IMG/VR virus record: IMGVR_UViG_3300017912_004379
Span: 1-46,605 of that record
DNA from: a virus
Lineage: Duplodnaviria; Caudoviricetes
Direction: 5' to 3' (one strand)
Length of the DNA stretch: 46,605 nt
Shown here: positions 22,597 to 46,605 of the stretch, piece by piece
How positions within the stretch are numbered: the first letter of the stretch is position 1
How the letters are laid out: the number at the start of each line of letters is the position of its first letter
The notes under the pieces: generated by a model
What the model was told of the DNA's origin: nothing
The model's database searches: none
What the model saw: the letters and a program-made list of their open reading frames with translations, nothing else
Made by a program: the position numbers and the translations under genes

Positions 22597-23610
22597 ATGA
22601 ACCTGATCCAGTCGAATATTCTGACGAGTTTGCCTACGGGCAGAAAGAAGACGCCCAGTGGGTGGATATCATTCAATGCACCATGTTGCGTACACAATGG
22701 TGAAACAGCAGACAAGAAAAAACGTGGCGGAATAATGACAAGTGCAGACGGCACTATCAGTTATCACTGTTTCAACTGCGGCTTCAAAGCAAGTTATGTA
22801 GTAGGTAGAAAACTTACATTCAAGATGAGACAGTTCATGGGATACATTGGCATACCCGATGACACAATACGTAAATTGGCCATAGAAGCCATGCGTGAAG
22901 AAGAAAGTGATGTCAAATATGAAAAGAAAAAATTTGTTACATTTAAGAAAAAAGAATTACCCAAAGACACAAGAACACTGGGCGAATGGCTAGAGGAGTA
23001 CACAGTGGGCACGATGTCCACAGAACAACAAAACAAAATTGATAATCTGTTGAACTATCTCACAGGTAGAGGCATAGGTCCTGATTGGTATGACTTCATG
23101 TATTCATCTAACAAGCACTGGGACACTGACAAAAGACTACTGATTCCATTTTACTGGCGTGGTGATATTGTTGGCTTTACAGGAAGGATGTTTGAACAAT
23201 CAGACAAAGTAAAATATTACACAGATGTACAACCAGGATATGTGTTCAACATGGACGCACAAGATTGGACAAGGAAATTTGTAATTGTTACAGAAGGGCC
23301 GTTCGATGCAATTACCATTTCTGGTGTCAGCATACTCGGATCGGAGATAAATGATACACAGCGAGAGCTCATAGATGGATTGGGCAGGCAAGTTATTGTT
23401 GTACCGGATAGAGATGCACCAGGAGAAAAACTGATCAATCAAGCAAAAGAATTTGGATGGAGCGTTGCGTTCCCTGAATGGGAAGACGGAGTCAATGATA
23501 TAGCAGAGGCGGTACAGAAGTATGGTAGATTATTCACAATACAATCAATATTGAAAACAACTGAAAGCAACAAGTTGAAAATAGATTTGAAAAGGAAAAT
23601 GTATGGTTAG
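22597..23610 (+). CDS. DNA primase (gp61/DnaG-like)
   Basis: N-terminal zinc ribbon (PCC...YHCFNCG), RLLIPF, TOPRIM EGPFDA and DRD. Confidence 0.9.
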   Translation: MNLIQSNILTSLPTGRKKTPSGWISFNAPCCVHNGETADKKKRGGIMTSADGTISYHCFNCGFKASYVVGRKLTFKMRQFMGYIGIPDDTIRKLAIEAMREEESDVKYEKKKFVTFKKKELPKDTRTLGEWLEEYTVGTMSTEQQNKIDNLLNYLTGRGIGPDWYDFMYSSNKHWDTDKRLLIPFYWRGDIVGFTGRMFEQSDKVKYYTDVQPGYVFNMDAQDWTRKFVIVTEGPFDAITISGVSILGSEINDTQRELIDGLGRQVIVVPDRDAPGEKLINQAKEFGWSVAFPEWEDGVNDIAEAVQKYGRLFTIQSILKTTESNKLKIDLKRKMYG

Positions 23611-24511
23611 TTTCCACATCGAACCAACTAGTAAATGCACACTGGAATGTCCTTTATGTGACAGGACATGGTTCTATGAAACGTTCAAGAGACGTAATTT
23701 ACATGAGATTAACATCGACCACCTTGTTGATTTTGTGGGACCAAATGCAGACATCTATATGTGTGGCAACAACGGTGACCCAATATATCATTCTAAATTT
23801 CTCGAGTTGTGCGAAAGACTAAAAGCAAATAATTGTAAAATCTCAATCACAACAAACGGCTCGGCAAAAACTAAAAAATGGTGGCAAAAATTAAATGACA
23901 TTTTAGATCAGAATGACTTAATTACATTTTCCATAGACGGACTAGAAGATACTAATCACCTATACAGGAAAAATGCAAAATGGAAATCAATTATGGATGC
24001 CGTAAATGTTCTACAAAAACGTAGATGTAAAATGAATTGGAAATTCATTGTATTTAAACACAACCAACATCAGATCAAAGACGCTAAAGAACTTTCAACA
24101 AAATTACAGTTTGATCATTTTAGTTTAGAACAAAGTGATAGATGGATGGGCAAAAAAGATCTAATGCCGGACAGAGAATTTGTAGACACATATTACCAAC
24201 ATCAACAGCAAGTGCTGATAGATCCAAATTACAGAACGAAGATGCAACCGTTTTGTTTGGTCAACGATAAGCCAAGCAATGATTTATACATAGATGCCGA
24301 AGGAGATTTTTATCCATGCTGTTGGCTGGGCACATACAGATACAAATTTAAAAGTGTATTTTCTCCAAAGGGTCAAAAGTTCAACATACAAAATAACACC
24401 TTAGATGGTATTTTAGGTGACACCGCAGTGAAAGAGTTTTTCAATTCAACAAAACAATTTACATCTGCTCATAATTGTTGTAAAATAAAGTGTGGAGTAA
24501 AAAATGGATAA
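23603..24511 (+). CDS. Radical SAM protein with a C-terminal SPASM/Twitch-like domain
   Basis: CTLECPLC (CxxxCxxC), GNNGDP, TNG, FSIDG, G.FYPCC, C-terminal CC..KC. Confidence 0.88.
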   Translation: MVSFHIEPTSKCTLECPLCDRTWFYETFKRRNLHEINIDHLVDFVGPNADIYMCGNNGDPIYHSKFLELCERLKANNCKISITTNGSAKTKKWWQKLNDILDQNDLITFSIDGLEDTNHLYRKNAKWKSIMDAVNVLQKRRCKMNWKFIVFKHNQHQIKDAKELSTKLQFDHFSLEQSDRWMGKKDLMPDREFVDTYYQHQQQVLIDPNYRTKMQPFCLVNDKPSNDLYIDAEGDFYPCCWLGTYRYKFKSVFSPKGQKFNIQNNTLDGILGDTAVKEFFNSTKQFTSAHNCCKIKCGVKNG

Positions 24512-31764: not shown

Positions 31765-31932
31765 ATGGGTATCCACTACGATTACAAGAGCACCAGAGGT
31801 GCCAAGAAGATGCAGAAGCAACAGCAACGTGAGGAGCGTAGGCGCAGGAAGAAGACACAGCCGGCAACTACGCCACGACAGGACGAGACTCGACCCTTGA
31901 CCCTTGACATGATAACTGATCCAGACAGATGA
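31765..31932 (+). CDS. Small basic protein (55 aa, not in the ORF track)
   Basis: MGIHYDYKSTRGAKKMQKQQQREERRRRKK...DPDR; GGGAG upstream; ATGA overlap with the radical SAM gene. Confidence 0.6.
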   Translation: MGIHYDYKSTRGAKKMQKQQQREERRRRKKTQPATTPRQDETRPLTLDMITDPDR

Positions 31933-32918
31933 TAAACCGCAGACTGTTTGACCACTACGGCATCGACACGAGCAAGGACCTGCGTATCAAGAACAGGTGT
32001 GCGAGGCCCTACGACACGGTGCTGATAGACAAACAAGGCAGTTGCTACGCCTGTGAATGCACCGCGTGGTTACCACAGAGCATAGGCAACCTACAGATCA
32101 AGAGCCTGGCGGAGATAGTGGGTTCGGCGATGCACCGCCACCTGCAGGGTTCCATCGCGGATGGCACCTATCGCTACTGTAACAACAGCCAGTGCACCTA
32201 CATCAAGAAGAACGTATTCGAGCAGGACTCCGGGGGCATCAGGCACCTGAGACTGGCCATAGACGACAGTTGCAACCTCAGGTGTCCCAGTTGCCGTAAG
32301 AACCTCATATTCCACAAAGATGGCTCAGCACACAGGCTGGGCATCAGACTGGCGGACAGGATAAACGAGTGGCTGTACCACCATGATGGACCCATACAGG
32401 TGCACATCGGATCCGACGGTGATCCGTTCGCATCTCACGTGTACAGGCACTTCATGGAGCAGACCCCGGAGCGTGACAACATCAAGTATTCCATACTGAC
32501 CAACGCACTGATGTTCAATGAGTTCCACACGCGGGTTCCCTACGTGATGAAGAACCTCAACGAGCTGGGAGTCAGCATAGACGGTGCCAGCAAGGACACC
32601 TACGAAAAACTGCGGCTCGGTGGTAGGTGGGACAAGATCAACGATAACCTGACCAGCATCGCCGATGCCAAACGCAGACACGGATTCAAGTTCATACTGT
32701 ACTTCGTGGTGCAGAAGGACAACCATCATGAGATGGACGACATGCTGGCCCTGGGCGAACGCTACGGCGCCGACCGAGTCAACTTTTCTCTGATAGAGGA
32801 CTGGGGAGTCTTACCCGACTTCAAGTCCAAACTGCCTCCATTGGAGGACCCTGCGTTCAAAGAGATGTTGGAAAGGTGCACCAGATCAGAACTGGGCAAC
32901 ACCTGGATGCATCGCTAG
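31929..32918 (+). CDS. Radical SAM protein with an N-terminal SPASM-like Cys domain
   Basis: CNLRCPSC, GDPF, TNA, SIDG...TYEKLR.GG.W; extra N-terminal CARP, CEC, YC...C. Confidence 0.88.
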   Translation: MINRRLFDHYGIDTSKDLRIKNRCARPYDTVLIDKQGSCYACECTAWLPQSIGNLQIKSLAEIVGSAMHRHLQGSIADGTYRYCNNSQCTYIKKNVFEQDSGGIRHLRLAIDDSCNLRCPSCRKNLIFHKDGSAHRLGIRLADRINEWLYHHDGPIQVHIGSDGDPFASHVYRHFMEQTPERDNIKYSILTNALMFNEFHTRVPYVMKNLNELGVSIDGASKDTYEKLRLGGRWDKINDNLTSIADAKRRHGFKFILYFVVQKDNHHEMDDMLALGERYGADRVNFSLIEDWGVLPDFKSKLPPLEDPAFKEMLERCTRSELGNTWMHR

Positions 32919-34009
32919 TTCGCGACTGTGTTGTAGATCTTCATTATTTCCTTGAGAGTGTCTTGAGACACGGACTTAGGTGCACAGGTGCCACACACGC
33001 ACTTTGTCTGGGCACAGATCAAAGTTGGAAGTTCCCGTTGTGTCCTCATCTTTTCTATGTAGTCGGGCATGGTGTTTATGTCCGCGATTGGTCCTGTTGT
33101 GCCATCTAACTTGACCCTGCAGTCCTTGTTGGTGAAGTACTGCCCAGTAACATTGTTGCCGAACAGGAAAAATTGATTTGCGGAACAGTGCCAACCCTTG
33201 AATCCATCTGGTCCACGTGGCACCAGCGTGTTGGTCTTTCGCAGTTGCCTGTCGAAACACATCTTACGTCCGCCACAACAGGCCCTGGTCTGCCGATTGG
33301 CTGTTGTGTCATGTTTCCAACCCATCAGCTCTACTGGGTCAATAAATTCTCCCAGGTCTGTGAGGTGCTGTTTGCTGTACATTCCCAAAGTCCCGTCCAG
33401 CAATCTTGGCCTGGCGTTGACTCCTTTTTCCTTTGCCCATCGCAAGAACTCTATGCAATCTTTCCAGTGATCAGCGTGGGGATACATGCAGACTATGGTG
33501 TCGTGTTCCTTTTTGATCTCACCGAGATAAAGAAGATTGTTCCTGAACATTTTTTTCAATTTTTCAGCACCCTGGCTGTGATAACTCATTGTGATTCCCT
33601 CCACGTGTTCGCAGATGAGTCTCCAAGACTTCTCTGTGGCTGTGCCGTTAGTTGTGAGTCTTCTTTTGAGTTTCCAATTATCTTTGTACTGTTCGTATCT
33701 TCTAGAAGAATGTACCATGAGTTCTATTATGTGGGGATGATAGATGACTTCGCCTCCTAACATCTGCATAATGACTTCTTTAGATGCCTGTTTCTTGTGA
33801 GACATCACAACATCAATGTACTCGTACATCTGGTCGAGCATGAGCAAAGATTGTTTGACGCTAGGGTGTGGGATCGAGTTGTCGTGTCCTGTTGGTCCTA
33901 TTGGACAGTAGGCACAGTCGTAATTACATTTCAAAGTCACTAGCCAGTCTACCAGCAAACTCATTCTTTGGTTGGGATGATATGCAGGTTCAATTGTTTG
34001 TATGGACAT
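32915..34009 (-). CDS. Radical SAM protein
   Basis: CNYDCAYC, GGE, TTNG, SYH; C-terminal F.GW.C and C...C.C..C; start placed at ATG 34009. Confidence 0.85.
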   Translation of the reverse strand: MSIQTIEPAYHPNQRMSLLVDWLVTLKCNYDCAYCPIGPTGHDNSIPHPSVKQSLLMLDQMYEYIDVVMSHKKQASKEVIMQMLGGEVIYHPHIIELMVHSSRRYEQYKDNWKLKRRLTTNGTATEKSWRLICEHVEGITMSYHSQGAEKLKKMFRNNLLYLGEIKKEHDTIVCMYPHADHWKDCIEFLRWAKEKGVNARPRLLDGTLGMYSKQHLTDLGEFIDPVELMGWKHDTTANRQTRACCGGRKMCFDRQLRKTNTLVPRGPDGFKGWHCSANQFFLFGNNVTGQYFTNKDCRVKLDGTTGPIADINTMPDYIEKMRTQRELPTLICAQTKCVCGTCAPKSVSQDTLKEIMKIYNTVAN

Positions 34010-34067
34010 CACCAATATTTAACTTTTGAAATTTTACCTATCATTTTTGCTGGCCGTAAATATGAGC

Positions 34068-42049: not shown

Positions 42050-42649
42050 TTACTCTTTGTCGTCTTCTGCTCTGTTTGTGATCACCTTGTCGGCCAGTCC
42101 GTACTCGACGGCTTCCGCGGGAGTCATGAACTTGTCACGCTCCATGTCGTCTTTCAGTTTCTGCAAGGGTTGACCTGTTGTCTGCTCGTATATCTCTGTG
42201 AGCTCTTTCTTCCAACGCAACAGTTCGTTGGCTCTTATCTCCACGTCTGTGGCCTGTCCACTCGCACCGCCCAGTGGCTGGTGTATCATGTGTCGTGCGT
42301 GTGGCAACATCAGTCGCTTGCCTTTGGCACCCGCTGACGCAAGGAGTGAGCCCATGCTACATGCCTGGCCCACCACTATGGTCTGTATGTCTGACTTCAC
42401 ATACTGCATGGTGTCGTATATCGCCATGCCTGCCGTTACCAGTCCGCCCGGCGAATTGATATACAGTGTGATATCCTTCTGGGCATCCTGTGACTCCAGG
42501 AACAACAGTTGAGCACACAACACACTCGCGGTGTTCTCTCCTATCGGACCTTCCAACATGATTATCCTGTCCTTGAGCAGTCTAGAGAATATGTCATACG
42601 ATCTCTCGCCCTTGGATGTCTGTTCTATCACTATTGGTGTAAGTGGCAT
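42050..42649 (-). CDS. clpP: ATP-dependent Clp protease proteolytic subunit
   Basis: [30 protein letters not shown] (Ser), MIHQP (His), MERD (Asp); start placed at ATG 42649. Confidence 0.96.
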
Positions 42650-42655
42650 AGTGTT

Positions 42656-42684
42656 ATAATACACTATAACCCGCGATAGGTCAA
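42656..42684 (-). promoter_or_regulatory. Sigma70-like promoter for clpP
   Basis: TTGACC-17-TG-TATTAT, 6 nt before ATG 42649. Confidence 0.6.
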
Positions 42685-42710
42685 CCTTGCAAATGTGCTG
42701 TTATAACCGA

Positions 42711-42809
42711 CTAGATGTGTGCGAACAGGCCCATCGCCACCATGAACGCCACGAACACCCAGCAGTCCACTGCGTGTCGCTCTATTGCGTTGTATCTCTT
42801 GTCCGACAT
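42711..42809 (-). CDS. Membrane microprotein (32 aa)
   Basis: MSDKRYNAIERHAVDCWVFVAFMVAMGLFAHI; TAATG coupling to 42809-42997. Confidence 0.55.
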   Translation of the reverse strand: MSDKRYNAIERHAVDCWVFVAFMVAMGLFAHI

Positions 42810-42997
42810 TACAGTTGCACCGGCACCACGTACTCTTTGCCGTCCACTTCTATGGTAGTTTTAATGCCCCAGGCACGTGTGGGGTTGACGAACCAGTTCG
42901 CCTCCGTGTGTTCAACTTTGCGTTGCTTGTTGGTGTTGGATTTCTTGTACTTCTTGGCTGTGCTCAACCATTCGTTCTCTTGATCTGTGTATATCAT
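42809..42997 (-). CDS. Small hypothetical protein
   Basis: 62 aa; AAGGA Shine-Dalgarno. Confidence 0.7.
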   Translation of the reverse strand: MIYTDQENEWLSTAKKYKKSNTNKQRKVEHTEANWFVNPTRAWGIKTTIEVDGKEYVVPVQL

Positions 42998-43019
42998 TTG
43001 TTCCTTTGTTTTGCTTTAT

Positions 43020-43140
43020 TTTATCTGATTTGGTCGGTGAAAACTAGTGCTGTCTGCACATAGGTGCCATGCACGATGGCGCCAGGATCTGATCCCCTCT
43101 CGCTTCACAGATCCTGTACATGCCACGTATCGTTACATCT
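43020..43140 (-). other. Candidate structured 5' leader RNA
   Basis: TGTATAAT box at 43144-43151 (minus strand), then a 9-bp perfect inverted repeat CAGGATCTG/CAGATCCTG (43083-43116) with flanking pairings. Confidence 0.4.
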
Positions 43141-43214
43141 GTAATTATACAATCCTGGCGGTGGTATTGCTACCGTTATTTTTCCTGCGTGTAAATTTTT
43201 ACAACTGCCGGTTG

Positions 43215-43499
43215 TTACTCTGTGGGGTACTCGCCACCGACCTTCTTCAGCATACGTATGGCCTCCAACAGGTACTCCTCGCACTTGGTGGTGTTGCCCG
43301 TCACACGCATCTCCACTCCCTTGTCTCGCCACTGCTGTGATTCAGTGAACAGGGGTGCGTCCGAACGCTTGGCCTCGAAGTTCTGGTAGTGTATCATCTC
43401 GTCTGTGCATGAGCCGTTGCCCGATGAGTGTCCAGACTGTGCTGGCACTGTGAGGCACATCAGCAATATAAAACTCAACAGTATTCCTATCGATCTCAT
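43215..43499 (-). CDS. Secreted small protein
   Basis: Signal peptide followed by a helical domain with two Cys; TAAATA box 7 nt upstream. Confidence 0.7.
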   Translation of the reverse strand: MRSIGILLSFILLMCLTVPAQSGHSSGNGSCTDEMIHYQNFEAKRSDAPLFTESQQWRDKGVEMRVTGNTTKCEEYLLEAIRMLKKVGGEYPTE

Positions 43500-43505
43500 A
43501 ATGTA

Positions 43506-43649
43506 CTATTTATTTTTCCGCTGTGCAAATTTTTTGAATCTCAGGTACAGCGCCTCGTGGGGTTTTTGGCCCGCCCTGTAACTGCTGACCAGTCCCATTA
43601 TGACGCCGGGCACTGTGAATATCAGTATGATTATGACAGCGGTTTTCAT
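43506..43649 (-). CDS. Membrane microprotein (47 aa)
   Basis: MKTAVIIILIFTVPGVIMGLVSSYRAGQKP...; ATGA overlap. Confidence 0.6.
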   Translation of the reverse strand: MKTAVIIILIFTVPGVIMGLVSSYRAGQKPHEALYLRFKKFAQRKNK

Positions 43650-43738
43650 ATGATCAGGGTGCCGTGTATCTTGCCCAGGATCAGGCTGATCGCTATCGCT
43701 GACGCAAATATGCCTGCTATGATCCAGAACAGGTCCAT
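43646..43738 (-). CDS. Membrane microprotein (30 aa)
   Basis: MDLFWIIAGIFASAIAISLILGKIHGTLII; TAATG overlap. Confidence 0.6.
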   Translation of the reverse strand: MDLFWIIAGIFASAIAISLILGKIHGTLII

Positions 43739-43809
43739 TATCTCAATGCCCATATCCCCAATGGTATGGCTATCGCGTAGTAGGTGATGATCATGATCTC
43801 CACTACCAT
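43738..43809 (-). CDS. Membrane microprotein (23 aa)
   Basis: MVVEIMIITYYAIAIPLGIWALR; overlaps the previous stop. Confidence 0.55.
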   Translation of the reverse strand: MVVEIMIITYYAIAIPLGIWALR

Positions 43810-43874
43810 ACGTAGATGCCAAGATATATGCTGACTGCTATGACCATGACCCAGAATGTTAAGTTAGAACGCAT
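43803..43874 (-). CDS. Membrane microprotein (23 aa)
   Basis: MRSNLTFWVMVIAVSIYLGIYVW. Confidence 0.55.
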   Translation of the reverse strand: MRSNLTFWVMVIAVSIYLGIYVW

Positions 43875-43890
43875 ACAAATATATATGCCG

Positions 43891-44145
43891 TTAATGCTCG
43901 GCTTTATCTAGTAGTATTAGTTGATCGATGATTCTCATGATCTCTGACTTGAGATGCTGGATCTCCGCGTACACCACTTCTCGCTGTTCTGGGTTCACAT
44001 ACTCCAACTGCTGTAAGAGTTCCCACATGTTCATGTAACGCATCTGCAGTTCTTCCTTGAGTGAGAACACAGCGAACGTGTTCTCGTGGAATGCCAGGGC
44101 ACTGGCAGTCATTAGTACAAGTATGAATACGACACGTAACAGCAT
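43891..44145 (-). CDS. Secreted helical protein
   Basis: Signal peptide ending SALA; TAAATA box 5 nt upstream. Confidence 0.7.
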   Translation of the reverse strand: MLLRVVFILVLMTASALAFHENTFAVFSLKEELQMRYMNMWELLQQLEYVNPEQREVVYAEIQHLKSEIMRIIDQLILLDKAEH

Positions 44146-44651
44146 ATGGTTATTTAACGGTCAAGCGACACCGTTTGGAACCTGGGTATGCAGGGGTAAT
44201 TTTCCTGCTGTCATTTTTTTTATATAGGGGGTATTTTATCATTGCCCTACCAAATCTGCCACCATGCCATAAATTTTACAAGCCGACCGGCCTGACTCAG
44301 AAAATCTTTTCGACACCTTGTCGACCGTGTGTGCCACTCTTGATGGTGTCCACGGTTCTCCACCGTTATAGGCTGTTATAATGTGGGCCACCTCCCCCGC
44401 ACTCAGATCAATTGTGAGTCCCCCGCTCGCGGCGGTAATGATTGGTAAAGGCCTCTGACGACCGGCCCCGACCCAGAATGGAGACATGGTAAGCAATGGT
44501 AATGCCACCGCCCACCAAACCAAATCCACCAATGGAATGCGCCACGGATGCGAGAAATATGGTAGGGAATGGTAAACCCAGATTGGCGGCGAGGACCCCG
44601 GTCCGTGTGCACCATTACCAACTGTTACCACCGCACCGATAAATAGGTTAT

Positions 44652-44735
44652 ATGCTCACTTATTTCACAGCCTATGTGATCGTGCTTGGCCTACTCGGCT
44701 ATGCCCAATACATCCGCAACAGGTATCTGCGATGA
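44652..44735 (+). CDS. Membrane microprotein (27 aa)
   Basis: MLTYFTAYVIVLGLLGYAQYIRNRYLR; TAAATA box 6 nt upstream. Confidence 0.6.
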   Translation: MLTYFTAYVIVLGLLGYAQYIRNRYLR

Positions 44736-44824
44736 AGACCACACTCAAAACCCTAGCCATAGCCCTAGTGATAGTGATCGCCTGTCTGGTGGTGCATTAT
44801 GCGATAGGCACATTCTCCTACTAA
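44732..44824 (+). CDS. Membrane microprotein (30 aa)
   Basis: MKTTLKTLAIALVIVIACLVVHYAIGTFSY; ATGA overlap. Confidence 0.6.
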   Translation: MKTTLKTLAIALVIVIACLVVHYAIGTFSY

Positions 44825-45008
44825 GGTCTCCACCTCATATTGTTCCAGATCAGCTCATGCCTGCCGAGGTGCCCACCTTGGTCATATGATCCGATATGGC
44901 CCAAAACAGACAGCGAAGCGTCAGCGTGGTAATCAAAATTCCTAAGGATGGCAGGCATAGTTCAAATGCTCCATGCTCGTAAACCGCCTAGCGATAAGTA
45001 TCCGTATC

Positions 45009-45185
45009 ATGCCCACCCAAAGAGAATACGAAAAGCACAACCCAGAAATCAAATCAGATCATCGCCCAGCATGGCGTCCCAGGTTCCTGGACCATTCGGT
45101 GCCACAAGAGGGATCTGCCCTCATAGTGAAGACCATCATCGGTGCTCTCGCTCTATATGGCTTATACTCATTAATCTTCTCGTAG
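45009..45185 (+). CDS. Tail-anchored membrane microprotein (58 aa)
   Basis: MPTQREYEK...ALIVKTIIGALALYGLYSLIFS; TAAGTA box 8 nt upstream. Confidence 0.6.
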   Translation: MPTQREYEKHNPEIKSDHRPAWRPRFLDHSVPQEGSALIVKTIIGALALYGLYSLIFS

Positions 45186-45411
45186 TATAGGTTCCGTAGA
45201 TAAGGGTCAAGGACAATAAAGCAAGGTCGAGGACTAACAGTAGATACATTAGGATAGGGTACGAGGAGAGTCAAAAATCTGCCTTACGCTAGTTTCCTGC
45301 GGAAACTTATTGGCATATCTCCGCTTTACCACATCAAGTAAATGTCCTGAAAATTTTTTGCGGACGCATCGTCTTCGACGCGGGTCGCTCCCTCCCTTAC
45401 CATTACCAACA

Positions 45412-45762
45412 CTAGGCCGCAAGCCTTCCCTTCTTGTAATCACCCGATATCTTGCCCTTGTAGGCATGACAGTTCTTGCATAGGGTCTGAACATTTTCTG
45501 GGGTGTTATTGTATCTGTTTCCGTCCTTGTGATCCAGGTCCAATTGTCCACTATCCAATATGGTGCTGGTGCAATCAGGGTTCTCGCAATGGTCTTTCTT
45601 GTGAGCCTTTACGCCTGTTTCTAGTGGTGCCTTTCCGTATGATGCATCATGGCATTTCCAACAATAGGGTCTATATCTTTTTGATCCATCGCGATTGGTT
45701 CCACTCCATGCCACAAGTCTGTCGCAACCATAGTTGATGCAACTTGGTCTTATCTTTTTCAT
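45412..45762 (-). CDS. HNH endonuclease with zinc-binding motifs
   Basis: C...GC, CWKC, C...C, LDLDHKDGNRYNN.PENVQTLCKNCH; AAGGA Shine-Dalgarno. Confidence 0.88.
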   Translation of the reverse strand: MKKIRPSCINYGCDRLVAWSGTNRDGSKRYRPYCWKCHDASYGKAPLETGVKAHKKDHCENPDCTSTILDSGQLDLDHKDGNRYNNTPENVQTLCKNCHAYKGKISGDYKKGRLAA

Positions 45763-45914
45763 CTGTTCCTTTCTTTCTTATATTATTACACGGATCACCC
45801 ACATCTCCTAATGGGTTTTCCATGGTATAAAAAAAAATTAACCAAACTGCTTGTTCGTAAAGTGCTCTTAAATTATAGCACGGATAGGCATGATGTCTAC
45901 GATGTTTGGTAAAG

Positions 45915-45956
45915 AAAAACCCCCACTGAACAATTTTCGGCCGTCCAGTGAGGGTA
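45915..45956 (-). terminator. Probable intrinsic terminator
   Basis: Minus strand CCCTCACTGGAC...GTTCAGTGGGGG followed by TTTTT. Confidence 0.55.
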
Positions 45957-45986
45957 TCCATCAAAGGGAGGTCTGATGAATTCTGT

Positions 45987-46067
45987 CTATAGGGTGTTGC
46001 CTGGTCCTCCCGTCAGTAGGACTATCAGTGTGAATACAGTGGCGAACACTATGATTTCTATGCCCAT
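45987..46067 (-). CDS. Membrane microprotein (26 aa)
   Basis: MGIEIIVFATVFTLIVLLTGGPGNTL; AGGAG upstream; TAGATG adjacency. Confidence 0.6.
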   Translation of the reverse strand: MGIEIIVFATVFTLIVLLTGGPGNTL

Positions 46068-46172
46068 CTATATCGCTCCTATCAGCATGAGTCCACCCAG
46101 GTTTCCGATCAGGATCAGTGCTACTATAATGGCTCCCATGATCAGGATCCGTCTGTGCTCTGGTGTGATCAT
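46068..46172 (-). CDS. Membrane microprotein (34 aa)
   Basis: MITPEHRRILIMGAIIVALILIGNLGGLMLIGAI; ATGA overlap with the ATPase stop. Confidence 0.6.
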   Translation of the reverse strand: MITPEHRRILIMGAIIVALILIGNLGGLMLIGAI

Positions 46173-46605
46173 GCTCCCGGCCTCATACAGGTCTGTTCCG
46201 CCAGGTGCTGATATCTGTCCGGCGCCATCTTCCAGAGATCTGCTATCTTCAGCACCATCCTCAACGATATCTCTCTCAACTTGTGCTTGTTATCAAATAT
46301 GAACTGCACCAACTTCGCCTCTTCTTCCTTGCCCATGGCATACTTCTCCAGCATACCTGCACCACAGATCTGTCGGATACGGAGCATACGATCCCTCATG
46401 GAATCTATTGTGAGATCCAAGTAATGGCATCTGCTCTGTAGGGCCTGTAGATGGTCCTGCAACTTCTTGGATTTCACATTGTCAAACTTGATGTTCGTGA
46501 TAAAGATCACACCACCAAAGAACTCAAAACTGTTGGGCATTCCCTCTGCCATCAGTGTCCTGCTCTCCGTGTTCCAGTGTAGGGTTCGCTTCTTGCCTGT
46601 GTCCA
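46169..46605 (-). CDS. AAA+ ATPase, C-terminal part (5'-truncated by the window edge)
   Basis: Frame stays open to the window end (DTGKKRTLHWNTESR..P.SFEF.G.VIFITN, ALQSR sensor-1/Arg-finger pattern). Confidence 0.75.
   Translation of the reverse strand, partial: DTGKKRTLHWNTESRTLMAEGMPNSFEFFGGVIFITNIKFDNVKSKKLQDHLQALQSRCHYLDLTIDSMRDRMLRIRQICGAGMLEKYAMGKEEEAKLVQFIFDNKHKLREISLRMVLKIADLWKMAPDRYQHLAEQTCMRPGA

Follow-up and report, generated by a model that had tools for sequence, protein, structure and literature searches.

Are four overlapping open reading frames (ORFs), the shortest of only 23 codons, genuine genes, and if they are, what might a virus do with them? This question is posed by minus-strand positions 43506-43874 of a 46,605-nucleotide (nt) stretch of viral DNA (IMG/VR record IMGVR_UViG_3300017912_004379), which we refer to as the window and in which a first-pass annotation had proposed a cassette of single-helix membrane peptides, here named pepA to pepD. 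On comparative sequence evidence, the four micro-ORFs are genuine protein-coding genes under purifying selection, because their frames, start codons and lengths are conserved in relatives and selection acts on their amino acid sequences.

The four genes were confirmed to the base in a listing of ORFs of at least 20 amino acids (aa) on the minus strand of 43100-44300. pepA (43803-43874) encodes 23 aa, MRSNLTFWVMVIAVSIYLGIYVW, and starts 16 nt past the stop codon of an upstream gene, p84. pepB (43738-43809) also encodes 23 aa, MVVEIMIITYYAIAIPLGIWALR, and overlaps pepA by 7 nt (ATGGTAG). pepC (43646-43738) encodes 30 aa, MDLFWIIAGIFASAIAISLILGKIHGTLII, and overlaps pepB by 1 nt (TAATG), and pepD (43506-43649) encodes 47 aa and overlaps pepC by 4 nt (ATGA). 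Each peptide is essentially one hydrophobic helix, as originally described, with best 19-residue Kyte-Doolittle means of 1.99-2.61 (1.96-2.61 when pepG, a further micropeptide of the same block, is included). A charged C-terminal tail is present in pepD and missing in pepA, pepB and pepC. In pepD, hydropathy reaches 2.61 over residues 3-21 and the C-terminal flank carries a net charge of +7; its invariant motifs are PGxxxG, within the N-terminal helix, and SSYRAG.(K/R)P after it, and the basic tail comes next. Residues P14, G15, G19, S22, S23, R25, A26, G27 and P30 are invariant in both of our pepD alignments (67 and 56 sequences), and Y24 is invariant in the 56-sequence alignment and nearly so in the other. 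pepD is already a predicted protein in a public collection (P0001), and its close relatives carry the JGI label "uncharacterized membrane protein".

The start of pepC required a choice, since an in-frame ATG lies 15 nt upstream of the conserved start, a Met-Asp (MD) codon pair. The longer form of 35 aa was rejected because the upstream ATG is a by-product of the Ile-Trp codons of pepB, and because loci without pepB start pepC at MD, 17 nt past p84.

The tiling of the four ORFs had been put forward as unlikely to arise by chance, and this argument did not survive simulation. When the window was simulated 200 times with a first-order Markov model, 43 of the simulations had a chain of four or more ATG-initiated ORFs (20 aa or longer, with junctions between -8 and +1 nt), so tiling alone is weak evidence. 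The case for more than chance comes instead from conservation in relatives.

Relatives were collected from a scan of viral contigs, which yielded 6 loci, and a scan of metagenomes, which yielded 410 relatives and from which the best 80 were retrieved. The analysed set consists of 87 loci plus the window, or 88 non-redundant loci; four duplicate loci of the same contigs, the window's own locus and the locus of the phage Atu_ph07 were dropped. pepA and pepB each occur in 48 of the 88 loci, pepC in 77 and pepD in 85, corresponding to 36, 34, 61 and 66 distinct DNA versions, respectively. Lengths are nearly constant across loci, and the start codon is ATG or, rarely, GTG. The ratio of nonsynonymous to synonymous substitution rates (dN/dS; pairwise Nei-Gojobori, with dS of 0.8-1.05) on gapped codon alignments is 0.21 for pepA, 0.15 for pepB, 0.24 for pepC and 0.26 for pepD. 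When all six frames were compared on ungapped sets, the proposed frame gave the lowest value for pepA, pepB and pepC, at 0.22-0.25 versus 0.31-2.5 (0.31-2.4 for the control frames of pepA). pepD gave 0.46-0.49 in this ungapped test because N-terminal length variants differing by one residue are misaligned, which the gapped alignment corrects. The first-pass annotation had made its proposal depend on preservation of the frames and overlaps in relatives; both are preserved, and the proposed frames are under purifying selection.

The junctions are conserved as closely as the genes. pepA and pepB overlap by 7 nt in 39 of 39 loci, pepC and pepD overlap by 4 or 7 nt in 76 of 76, and pepB and pepC overlap by 1 nt in all 24 loci in which they are adjacent. 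The pepC-pepD overlap comes in two registers, of which one is ATGA, the form of the window, and the other is ATGGTAA or ATGGTGA (for example, ATGGTAA in locus L002); it thus survives a change of register. Where additional genes, pepE and pepF, are inserted, their junctions range from -7 to +7 nt. Sequences resembling a Shine-Dalgarno (SD) 4-mer are absent from positions -20 to -4 of the pepA-pepD starts (0 of 4) and also from those of p84, p94 and pepG; such a 4-mer precedes one of the eight small genes of the block (p62). The corresponding figures are 16 of 44 for large ORFs and 13% for random 20-mers. As a working definition, we regard genes joined by conserved stop/start overlaps or gaps of a few nucleotides as a translationally coupled operon, and the cassette is one by this definition. 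Given the conserved overlaps and missing SD motifs, the micropeptides are likely to be translated by coupled re-initiation. Programmed frameshifting that fuses pepA to pepB was also considered, and was rejected on the grounds that each of the start codons is conserved and that members occur independently.

The array is modular. Between a conserved upstream element and the downstream gene for a ClpP protease subunit, we observed 26 block architectures. The most common, written as the order of p84 (84), the micropeptide genes and p94 (94), are 84-C-D-94 (13 loci), 84-A-B-C-D-94 (nine, including the window), A-B-C-D-94 (seven) and 84-A-B-E-C-D-94 (six); rarer ones include 84-A-C-D, 84-A-D, B-E-C-D, 84-A-B-F-C-D and 84-C-D. 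As the last two illustrate, p94 is missing from many loci that keep peptide genes. Across the loci compared, pepC and pepD form a near-constant core to which pepA, pepB, pepE and pepF are accessory. Judged by this variation in block content, the four peptides of the window are not an obligate set, and the array is dispensable and accessory.

Two of the accessory genes are seen only in relatives. pepE encodes a single-helix peptide of 29-34 aa that ends in GWY and occurs in 20 loci (for example, L028:555-659) with a dN/dS of 0.29. It lies between pepB and pepC or, in three loci, between pepB and pepD, and is flanked on both sides by stop/start overlaps. pepF, which is absent from the window, encodes 29 aa with 10 or 11 cysteines (for example, MKRCKCCRCHCERCTCAYCRCDDCGETRD) and has a dN/dS of 0.09. 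It was found between pepB and pepC in six loci (L019:552-641, L047:515-604, L052:413-502, L060:545-634, L069:1066-1155 and L070:423-512). The product is soluble and could be a metal-binding peptide or the precursor of a modified peptide.

A fifth micropeptide gene in the window, pepG (42711-42809, minus strand), had not been noted previously. It encodes 32 aa (MSDKRYNAIERHAVDCWVFVAFMVAMGLFAHI) with a C-terminal hydrophobic helix (hydropathy 1.96), overlaps the p62 stop codon by 1 nt (TAATG) and lies 46 nt upstream of the ClpP gene. Relatives of pepG were found in 41 loci. Of the 28 loci with p62 as well as ClpP, 22 have one. In L005 and L009, an extra hydrophobic ORF of 22 aa follows pepG.

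In two other loci, the cassette is naturally disrupted. An opposite-strand ORF of 228 aa (L003:918-1604 and L004:3287-3973, both minus strand) replaces pepA, pepB, pepC and the N-terminus of pepD, and only the conserved SSYRAGQKPH tail of pepD is left in frame. This ORF appears methyltransferase-like by eye only.

The lineage is marine. Marine data from Tara, JGI and ENA contain 131 clusters of proteins (25-83 aa) homologous to pepD, and these clusters and the 410 metagenome matches are all marine or viral. A protein search did not find pepD in deposited GenBank phages, in which the region also has no DNA match; the lineage was not found in 50,697 deposited phage records, and no pepD relative was found in the genomes of 185,579 species. 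Near the ClpP gene of Atu_ph07, the annotation shows genes of ordinary size and no comparable array of micro-ORFs. The pepD family is therefore absent, as searched, from cultured phages and cellular genomes. The literature on coupled small membrane proteins of phages and on ClpP and marine jumbo phages, together with catalogues of small genes without their supplements, has nothing on the cassette in the portions accessible to us.

Searches for a known identity gave little. Pfam, PHROGs and NCBIfam returned nothing above threshold for any small protein of the block. Pfam at E <= 10 had no match for pepA-pepD, pepE or pepG other than weak matches of pepD to MWFE and DUF4044, and PHROGs at E <= 1 had none for pepA, pepB, pepC or pepG. 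pepD, p84 and p94 match PHROGs families of unknown function weakly (E 0.017 or weaker). In the ESM Atlas, the best score for pepD was 0.83, which is chance level. A pepD profile compared with 1.84 billion representative sequences had 11 matches at E <= 0.001, all of which belong to the pepD family or are two-helix variants of it, except for one repetitive protein of 263 aa (E 2.9e-4). Distant relatives of pepD (P0126, P0128, P0129 and P0130) are 75-100 aa long, retain SSYRAGQ and add a second hydrophobic helix at the C-terminus. A search for fused forms of pepD among longer proteins gave three matches of 91-98 aa without domains.

The resemblance of pepD to the Pfam family MWFE (PF15879) deserves separate comment. 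This family is matched at E <= 0.01 by 42 of 56 pepD members. When 30 members were scanned individually, 24 matched with 16.7-28.1 bits, over model positions 8 or 9 to 34-45 of 55. The gathering cut-off is 27 bits, which only one of the 30 passes (L047, at 28.1); the pepD of the window scores 20.1 bits (E 8e-4). In the reverse direction, the pepD profile run against all PDB chains at E <= 10 found six sequences, none of them a complex I MWFE/NDUFA1 chain, and the best match was an unrelated light-harvesting protein (E 0.067). Because only one member reaches the cut-off and the reverse search is not reciprocal, we do not file pepD under MWFE.

Two promoter-like elements precede the block. P1 (44233-44262, minus strand) consists of GTGGCA, an 18-nt spacer and a TG-extended TAAAAT, and is listed by our promoter scan. 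Its core, GGCAATGATAAAATACCC, occurs once in the window and in 45 of the 88 loci, ahead of whichever cassette gene is first. P2 (44146-44180, minus strand) is a weak promoter-like site composed of TTCCAA, 17 nt, TTAAAT and 6 nt, followed by the p84 ATG. At the P2 position in relatives, a perfect TTGACA-17-TATAAT lies 6-7 nt before an ATG in 16 of 49 copies of the element. This spacing suggests that P2 would yield a leaderless or near-leaderless mRNA. From the conservation of sigma-70-like promoter elements we infer early expression, and the same elements are suggestive of recognition by host polymerase and of a leaderless first cistron.

A gene of ~60 aa that starts with MPYYYV lies between the perfect TTGACA-17-TATAAT and p84 in L005 (521-703) and ~16 further loci. 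Its ATG follows the -10 hexamer by 6-7 nt, and the window does not have this gene. Upstream of the cassette, the segment 44263-45400 (minus strand) has a G+C content of ~47%, richer than the rest of the window, and its DNA is conserved in 4-20 relatives per 100-nt bin. It holds no ORF with a family match, and a 130-aa ORF with a GTG start (44239-44631) is in different frames in relatives. The region may be non-coding.

What these genes do can be approached through analogy. We think there is about an even chance that the conserved micro-ORFs encode coupled single-helix peptides, likely expressed early and placed in the host inner membrane, that belong to a modular, dispensable block directed at the envelope. 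Stop/start coupling would yield one-helix peptides, likely early in infection, and these would insert into the host inner membrane, as their hydrophobicity suggests, where they would modulate or protect envelope functions. pepC and pepD would act as a membrane pair, whereas the accessory pepA, pepB, pepE and pepG, together with the predicted exported proteins p84 and p94, would modify envelope functions. Exclusion of competing phages and modulation of host membrane proteins are candidate activities. By comparison with known systems, an envelope-directed role is the most likely one for the cassette. Of the membrane-peptide cassette originally proposed, the conserved single-helix genes joined by stop/start overlaps (the helices being predicted) are retained, and the argument from tiling is not.

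Several observations weigh against this proposal. No sequence, profile or fold link to exclusion, regulator or holin families was found, and the role is assigned by analogy. Conservation shows no significant helix periodicity (the observed moment was reached by 907, 2708, 542 and 476 of 5000 shuffles for the four peptides), and therefore gives no evidence of a defined packing face. In the window itself P2 is a weak site that the promoter scan did not list, which makes leaderless early expression speculative. Three marine RNA libraries contain assembled contigs over parts of relatives' cassettes (in run X2, a 431-nt contig over 43426-43583 and 43707-43798), but these are not proof of transcription, strand or timing. 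Finally, many loci perhaps derive from the same phage populations, and the numbers of distinct DNA versions (34-66) are the safer counts.

A more elaborate version of the envelope-directed proposal strikes us as improbable. In this version, up to seven peptides of 22-48 aa would build a multi-helix assembly in the inner membrane, made in fixed proportions by SD-free re-initiation on a leaderless mRNA, with pepA, pepB, pepE, pepG and the cysteine-rich pepF exchanged around the pepC-pepD core to retarget it to different envelope machines of the host, possibly a respiratory complex. The last element is hinted at by the MWFE-like helix of pepD.

The main rival explanation is similarly unlikely in our estimation. 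It holds that the peptides form a hetero-oligomeric pore, like a holin or viroporin, with pepD as a minimal one-helix holin. By depolarising the inner membrane, this pore would set the timing of lysis or shut the host down. The hydrophobic helix of pepD with its PGxxxG and strongly basic tail would fit such a pore, as would the second hydrophobic helix of its distant relatives, and tight coupling would suit a fixed stoichiometry. However, members are freely gained and lost, the sigma-70-like promoter elements point to expression early in infection and not late, and Pfam and PHROGs give no holin-family match. Moreover, no endolysin, lysozyme, amidase, transglycosylase, spanin or other lysis family was found among window ORFs of at least 90 aa, in a search that covered 46.6 kb, or 13% of the genome. 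Less probable again is that pepD imitates one of the small accessory subunits of a respiratory complex in the host and docks on this energy-transducing complex. The matches of 42 of 56 members, and of 24 of 30 scanned individually, to PF15879 point in this direction, but they are set against the single member that reaches 27 bits, the 20.1 bits of the window's pepD and the lack of a complex I chain in the reverse search. Also, MWFE is a mitochondrial supernumerary subunit for which we know of no bacterial counterpart.

The remaining alternatives deny that the peptides matter at all. The micro-ORFs could be translated spacers, that is, leader peptides or a re-initiation relay that feeds ribosomes to p94, with functionless products. 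The conserved junctions and the lack of SD-like motifs before p94 and every micropeptide are expected in that case, but dN/dS values of 0.15-0.26 at dS of about 0.8-1.0 are not, nor are the 10 or more invariant residues of pepD across 56-67 sequences or the many loci that keep peptide genes and have no p94. We therefore regard functionless spacers as very improbable. That the micro-ORFs are chance ORFs, or decayed remnants of a multi-pass membrane gene, is hardly credible. Chains of similar length do arise in simulated windows, as noted above, but the starts, stops and lengths of the micro-ORFs are conserved in 48-85 loci, and purifying selection acts in the proposed frame only. Decay of a larger gene is contradicted by the lack of a longer fused homologue, the three matches of 91-98 aa having no domains.

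The envelope-directed proposal can be compared with several known systems. The Imm, Sp and RI proteins of phage T4 are small and made early; each has a membrane segment at its N-terminus and acts at the inner membrane or in the periplasm. Their genes are found in those parts of T4-like genomes that are variable and dispensable. p84 and p94 are similar to these proteins in size and layout. The micropeptides are two to four times shorter, and PHROGs, Pfam and PDB gave no sequence match for the block. Type I toxins such as Hok, TisB, Ibs and Ldr (19-50 aa) are also hydrophobic single-helix peptides that insert into the inner membrane, as is predicted here, but they are encoded by stand-alone genes repressed by antisense RNAs. 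The phage peptides are serial in one coupled polycistron. Rfam shows neither an antitoxin nor another RNA at 42600-46605, although an antisense RNA of an undescribed kind could be present.

Adjacent genes that each encode one transmembrane helix (~30-80 aa) and contribute to one joint complex are known from the photosynthetic psbE-F-L-J and petG/L/M/N operons. The cassette shares the arrangement of adjacent one-helix genes, but pepA-pepD, pepE and pepG have no match to such subunits in Pfam at E <= 10, and nothing points to a photosynthetic host. pepD resembles holins in having one predicted hydrophobic helix and, after it, a C-terminal tail rich in basic residues. Described holins are of about 60 aa and up, and pepD is shorter; it also has no endolysin nearby among window ORFs of at least 90 aa, is preceded by early-type promoter elements and matches no holin family. 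With MWFE/NDUFA1, pepD shares a single N-terminal helix with Pro-Gly and a subsequent stretch that contains Tyr and Arg, although the window's pepD and 29 of the 30 members do not exceed the curated cut-off. Bacterial small membrane-protein regulators, such as AcrZ, MgtS, MgrB and KdpF, bind larger membrane proteins. Genes for such regulators are single and scattered in cellular genomes, whereas up to seven are chained by stop/start overlaps in the phages, and there is no sequence similarity. The likeness to such regulators, a class reviewed in PMC12648545, lies in a length of ~20-50 aa, in the presence of essentially one transmembrane helix and in their often being missed by annotation.

Small membrane proteins of phages are already known; what is notable here is the array form, the coupling and the abundance in the ocean, where the lineage is common in metagenomes (410 contigs matched). 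Small single-helix proteins remain poorly charted, and those known from phages are mostly encoded by isolated genes. Comparative evidence shows that seven peptide families without annotation, the shortest of 22-23 aa, are real genes, and at the scale of 23-30 aa the genes are both genuine and unannotated. Standard gene callers apply minimum-length cut-offs well above 23 codons, and whole gene arrays in jumbo phages are missed by them. The cassette also provides a test bed for ribosome re-initiation across very short cistrons without SD sites, and a candidate set of phage tools against bacterial membranes.

The neighbouring genes of the block are likewise on the minus strand. p84 (43891-44145) encodes 84 aa and p94 (43215-43499), which starts 6 nt past the pepD stop codon, encodes 94 aa with two invariant cysteines. 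Both were initially called signal-peptide proteins; each does have an N-terminal hydrophobic segment (best 19-residue means of 2.36 and 1.99, respectively), which could be a cleaved signal peptide or an uncleaved anchor. p84 is predicted to be exported or anchored. Its AlphaFold model is a helical hairpin (helices 2-46 and 52-83) with a mean predicted local distance difference test (pLDDT) score of 92.2, and 33 distinct sequences were aligned. No family or fold match was found for p84, including none in Foldseek at E <= 0.001 for what is a generic helical hairpin, and in the ESM Atlas it matches only its own unnamed viral clusters. The p94 model is a three-helix bundle with a low-confidence N-terminus (pLDDT 79 overall and ~90 over residues 31-90). 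p94 has 61 homologous clusters, all unnamed, and no BFVD match at E <= 0.001, with generic helical-bundle matches only. Its best VIA Z of 8.5 (2oo2_A; root-mean-square deviation 2.4, 69 residues aligned) is below the informative level for helical bundles. PDB profile searches with p84 and p94 gave designed or unrelated helical proteins only.

Between p94 and p62 is a spacer of 217 nt (42998-43214) with no convincing ORF, which blastn aligns in ~41-48 loci per 100-nt bin. Rfam gave no match over 42600-46605 at E <= 1, including this spacer, and the whole window at the gathering threshold contains tRNAs only. p62 (42809-42997), the sole gene of the block with an upstream SD-like 4-mer, encodes a soluble basic protein of 62 aa for which Pfam, PHROGs and NCBIfam gave no family. 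The ClpP protease subunit (42050-42664; Pfam CLP_protease, E 4.5e-81) forms a conserved downstream anchor and is 78-100% identical in the relatives' loci.

The window has a CheckV completeness of 13%. It encodes a gp32-like single-stranded DNA-binding protein, UvsX, UvsY, a DnaB-type helicase and a primase, in addition to pieces of a Pol III alpha-like polymerase, methyltransferases, sugar-nucleotide enzymes, ClpP and four tRNAs. UvsX is 64-70% identical to that of Sinorhizobium phage Phosso, Agrobacterium phage Atu_ph07, Vibrio phage 2.275.O and Rak2-like phages, whose genomes are 349-490 kb. By this identity, the window is part of the genome of an uncultured marine jumbo phage, a relative of the Atu_ph07-like and Rak2-like myoviruses.

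Two further features of the window lie outside the block. There are three radical-SAM ORFs, at 23603-24511 (plus strand), 31929-32918 (plus) and 32915-34015 (minus); the latter two are convergent with a 4-nt overlap and lie in a local G+C peak of 50% at 32-34 kb. An ORF for an HNH endonuclease (45412-45762, minus strand) lies inside a stretch of ~500 nt (45406-45905) that is aligned in almost no relatives, whereas both of its flanks are aligned. This stretch looks like a homing-endonuclease insertion particular to this genome.

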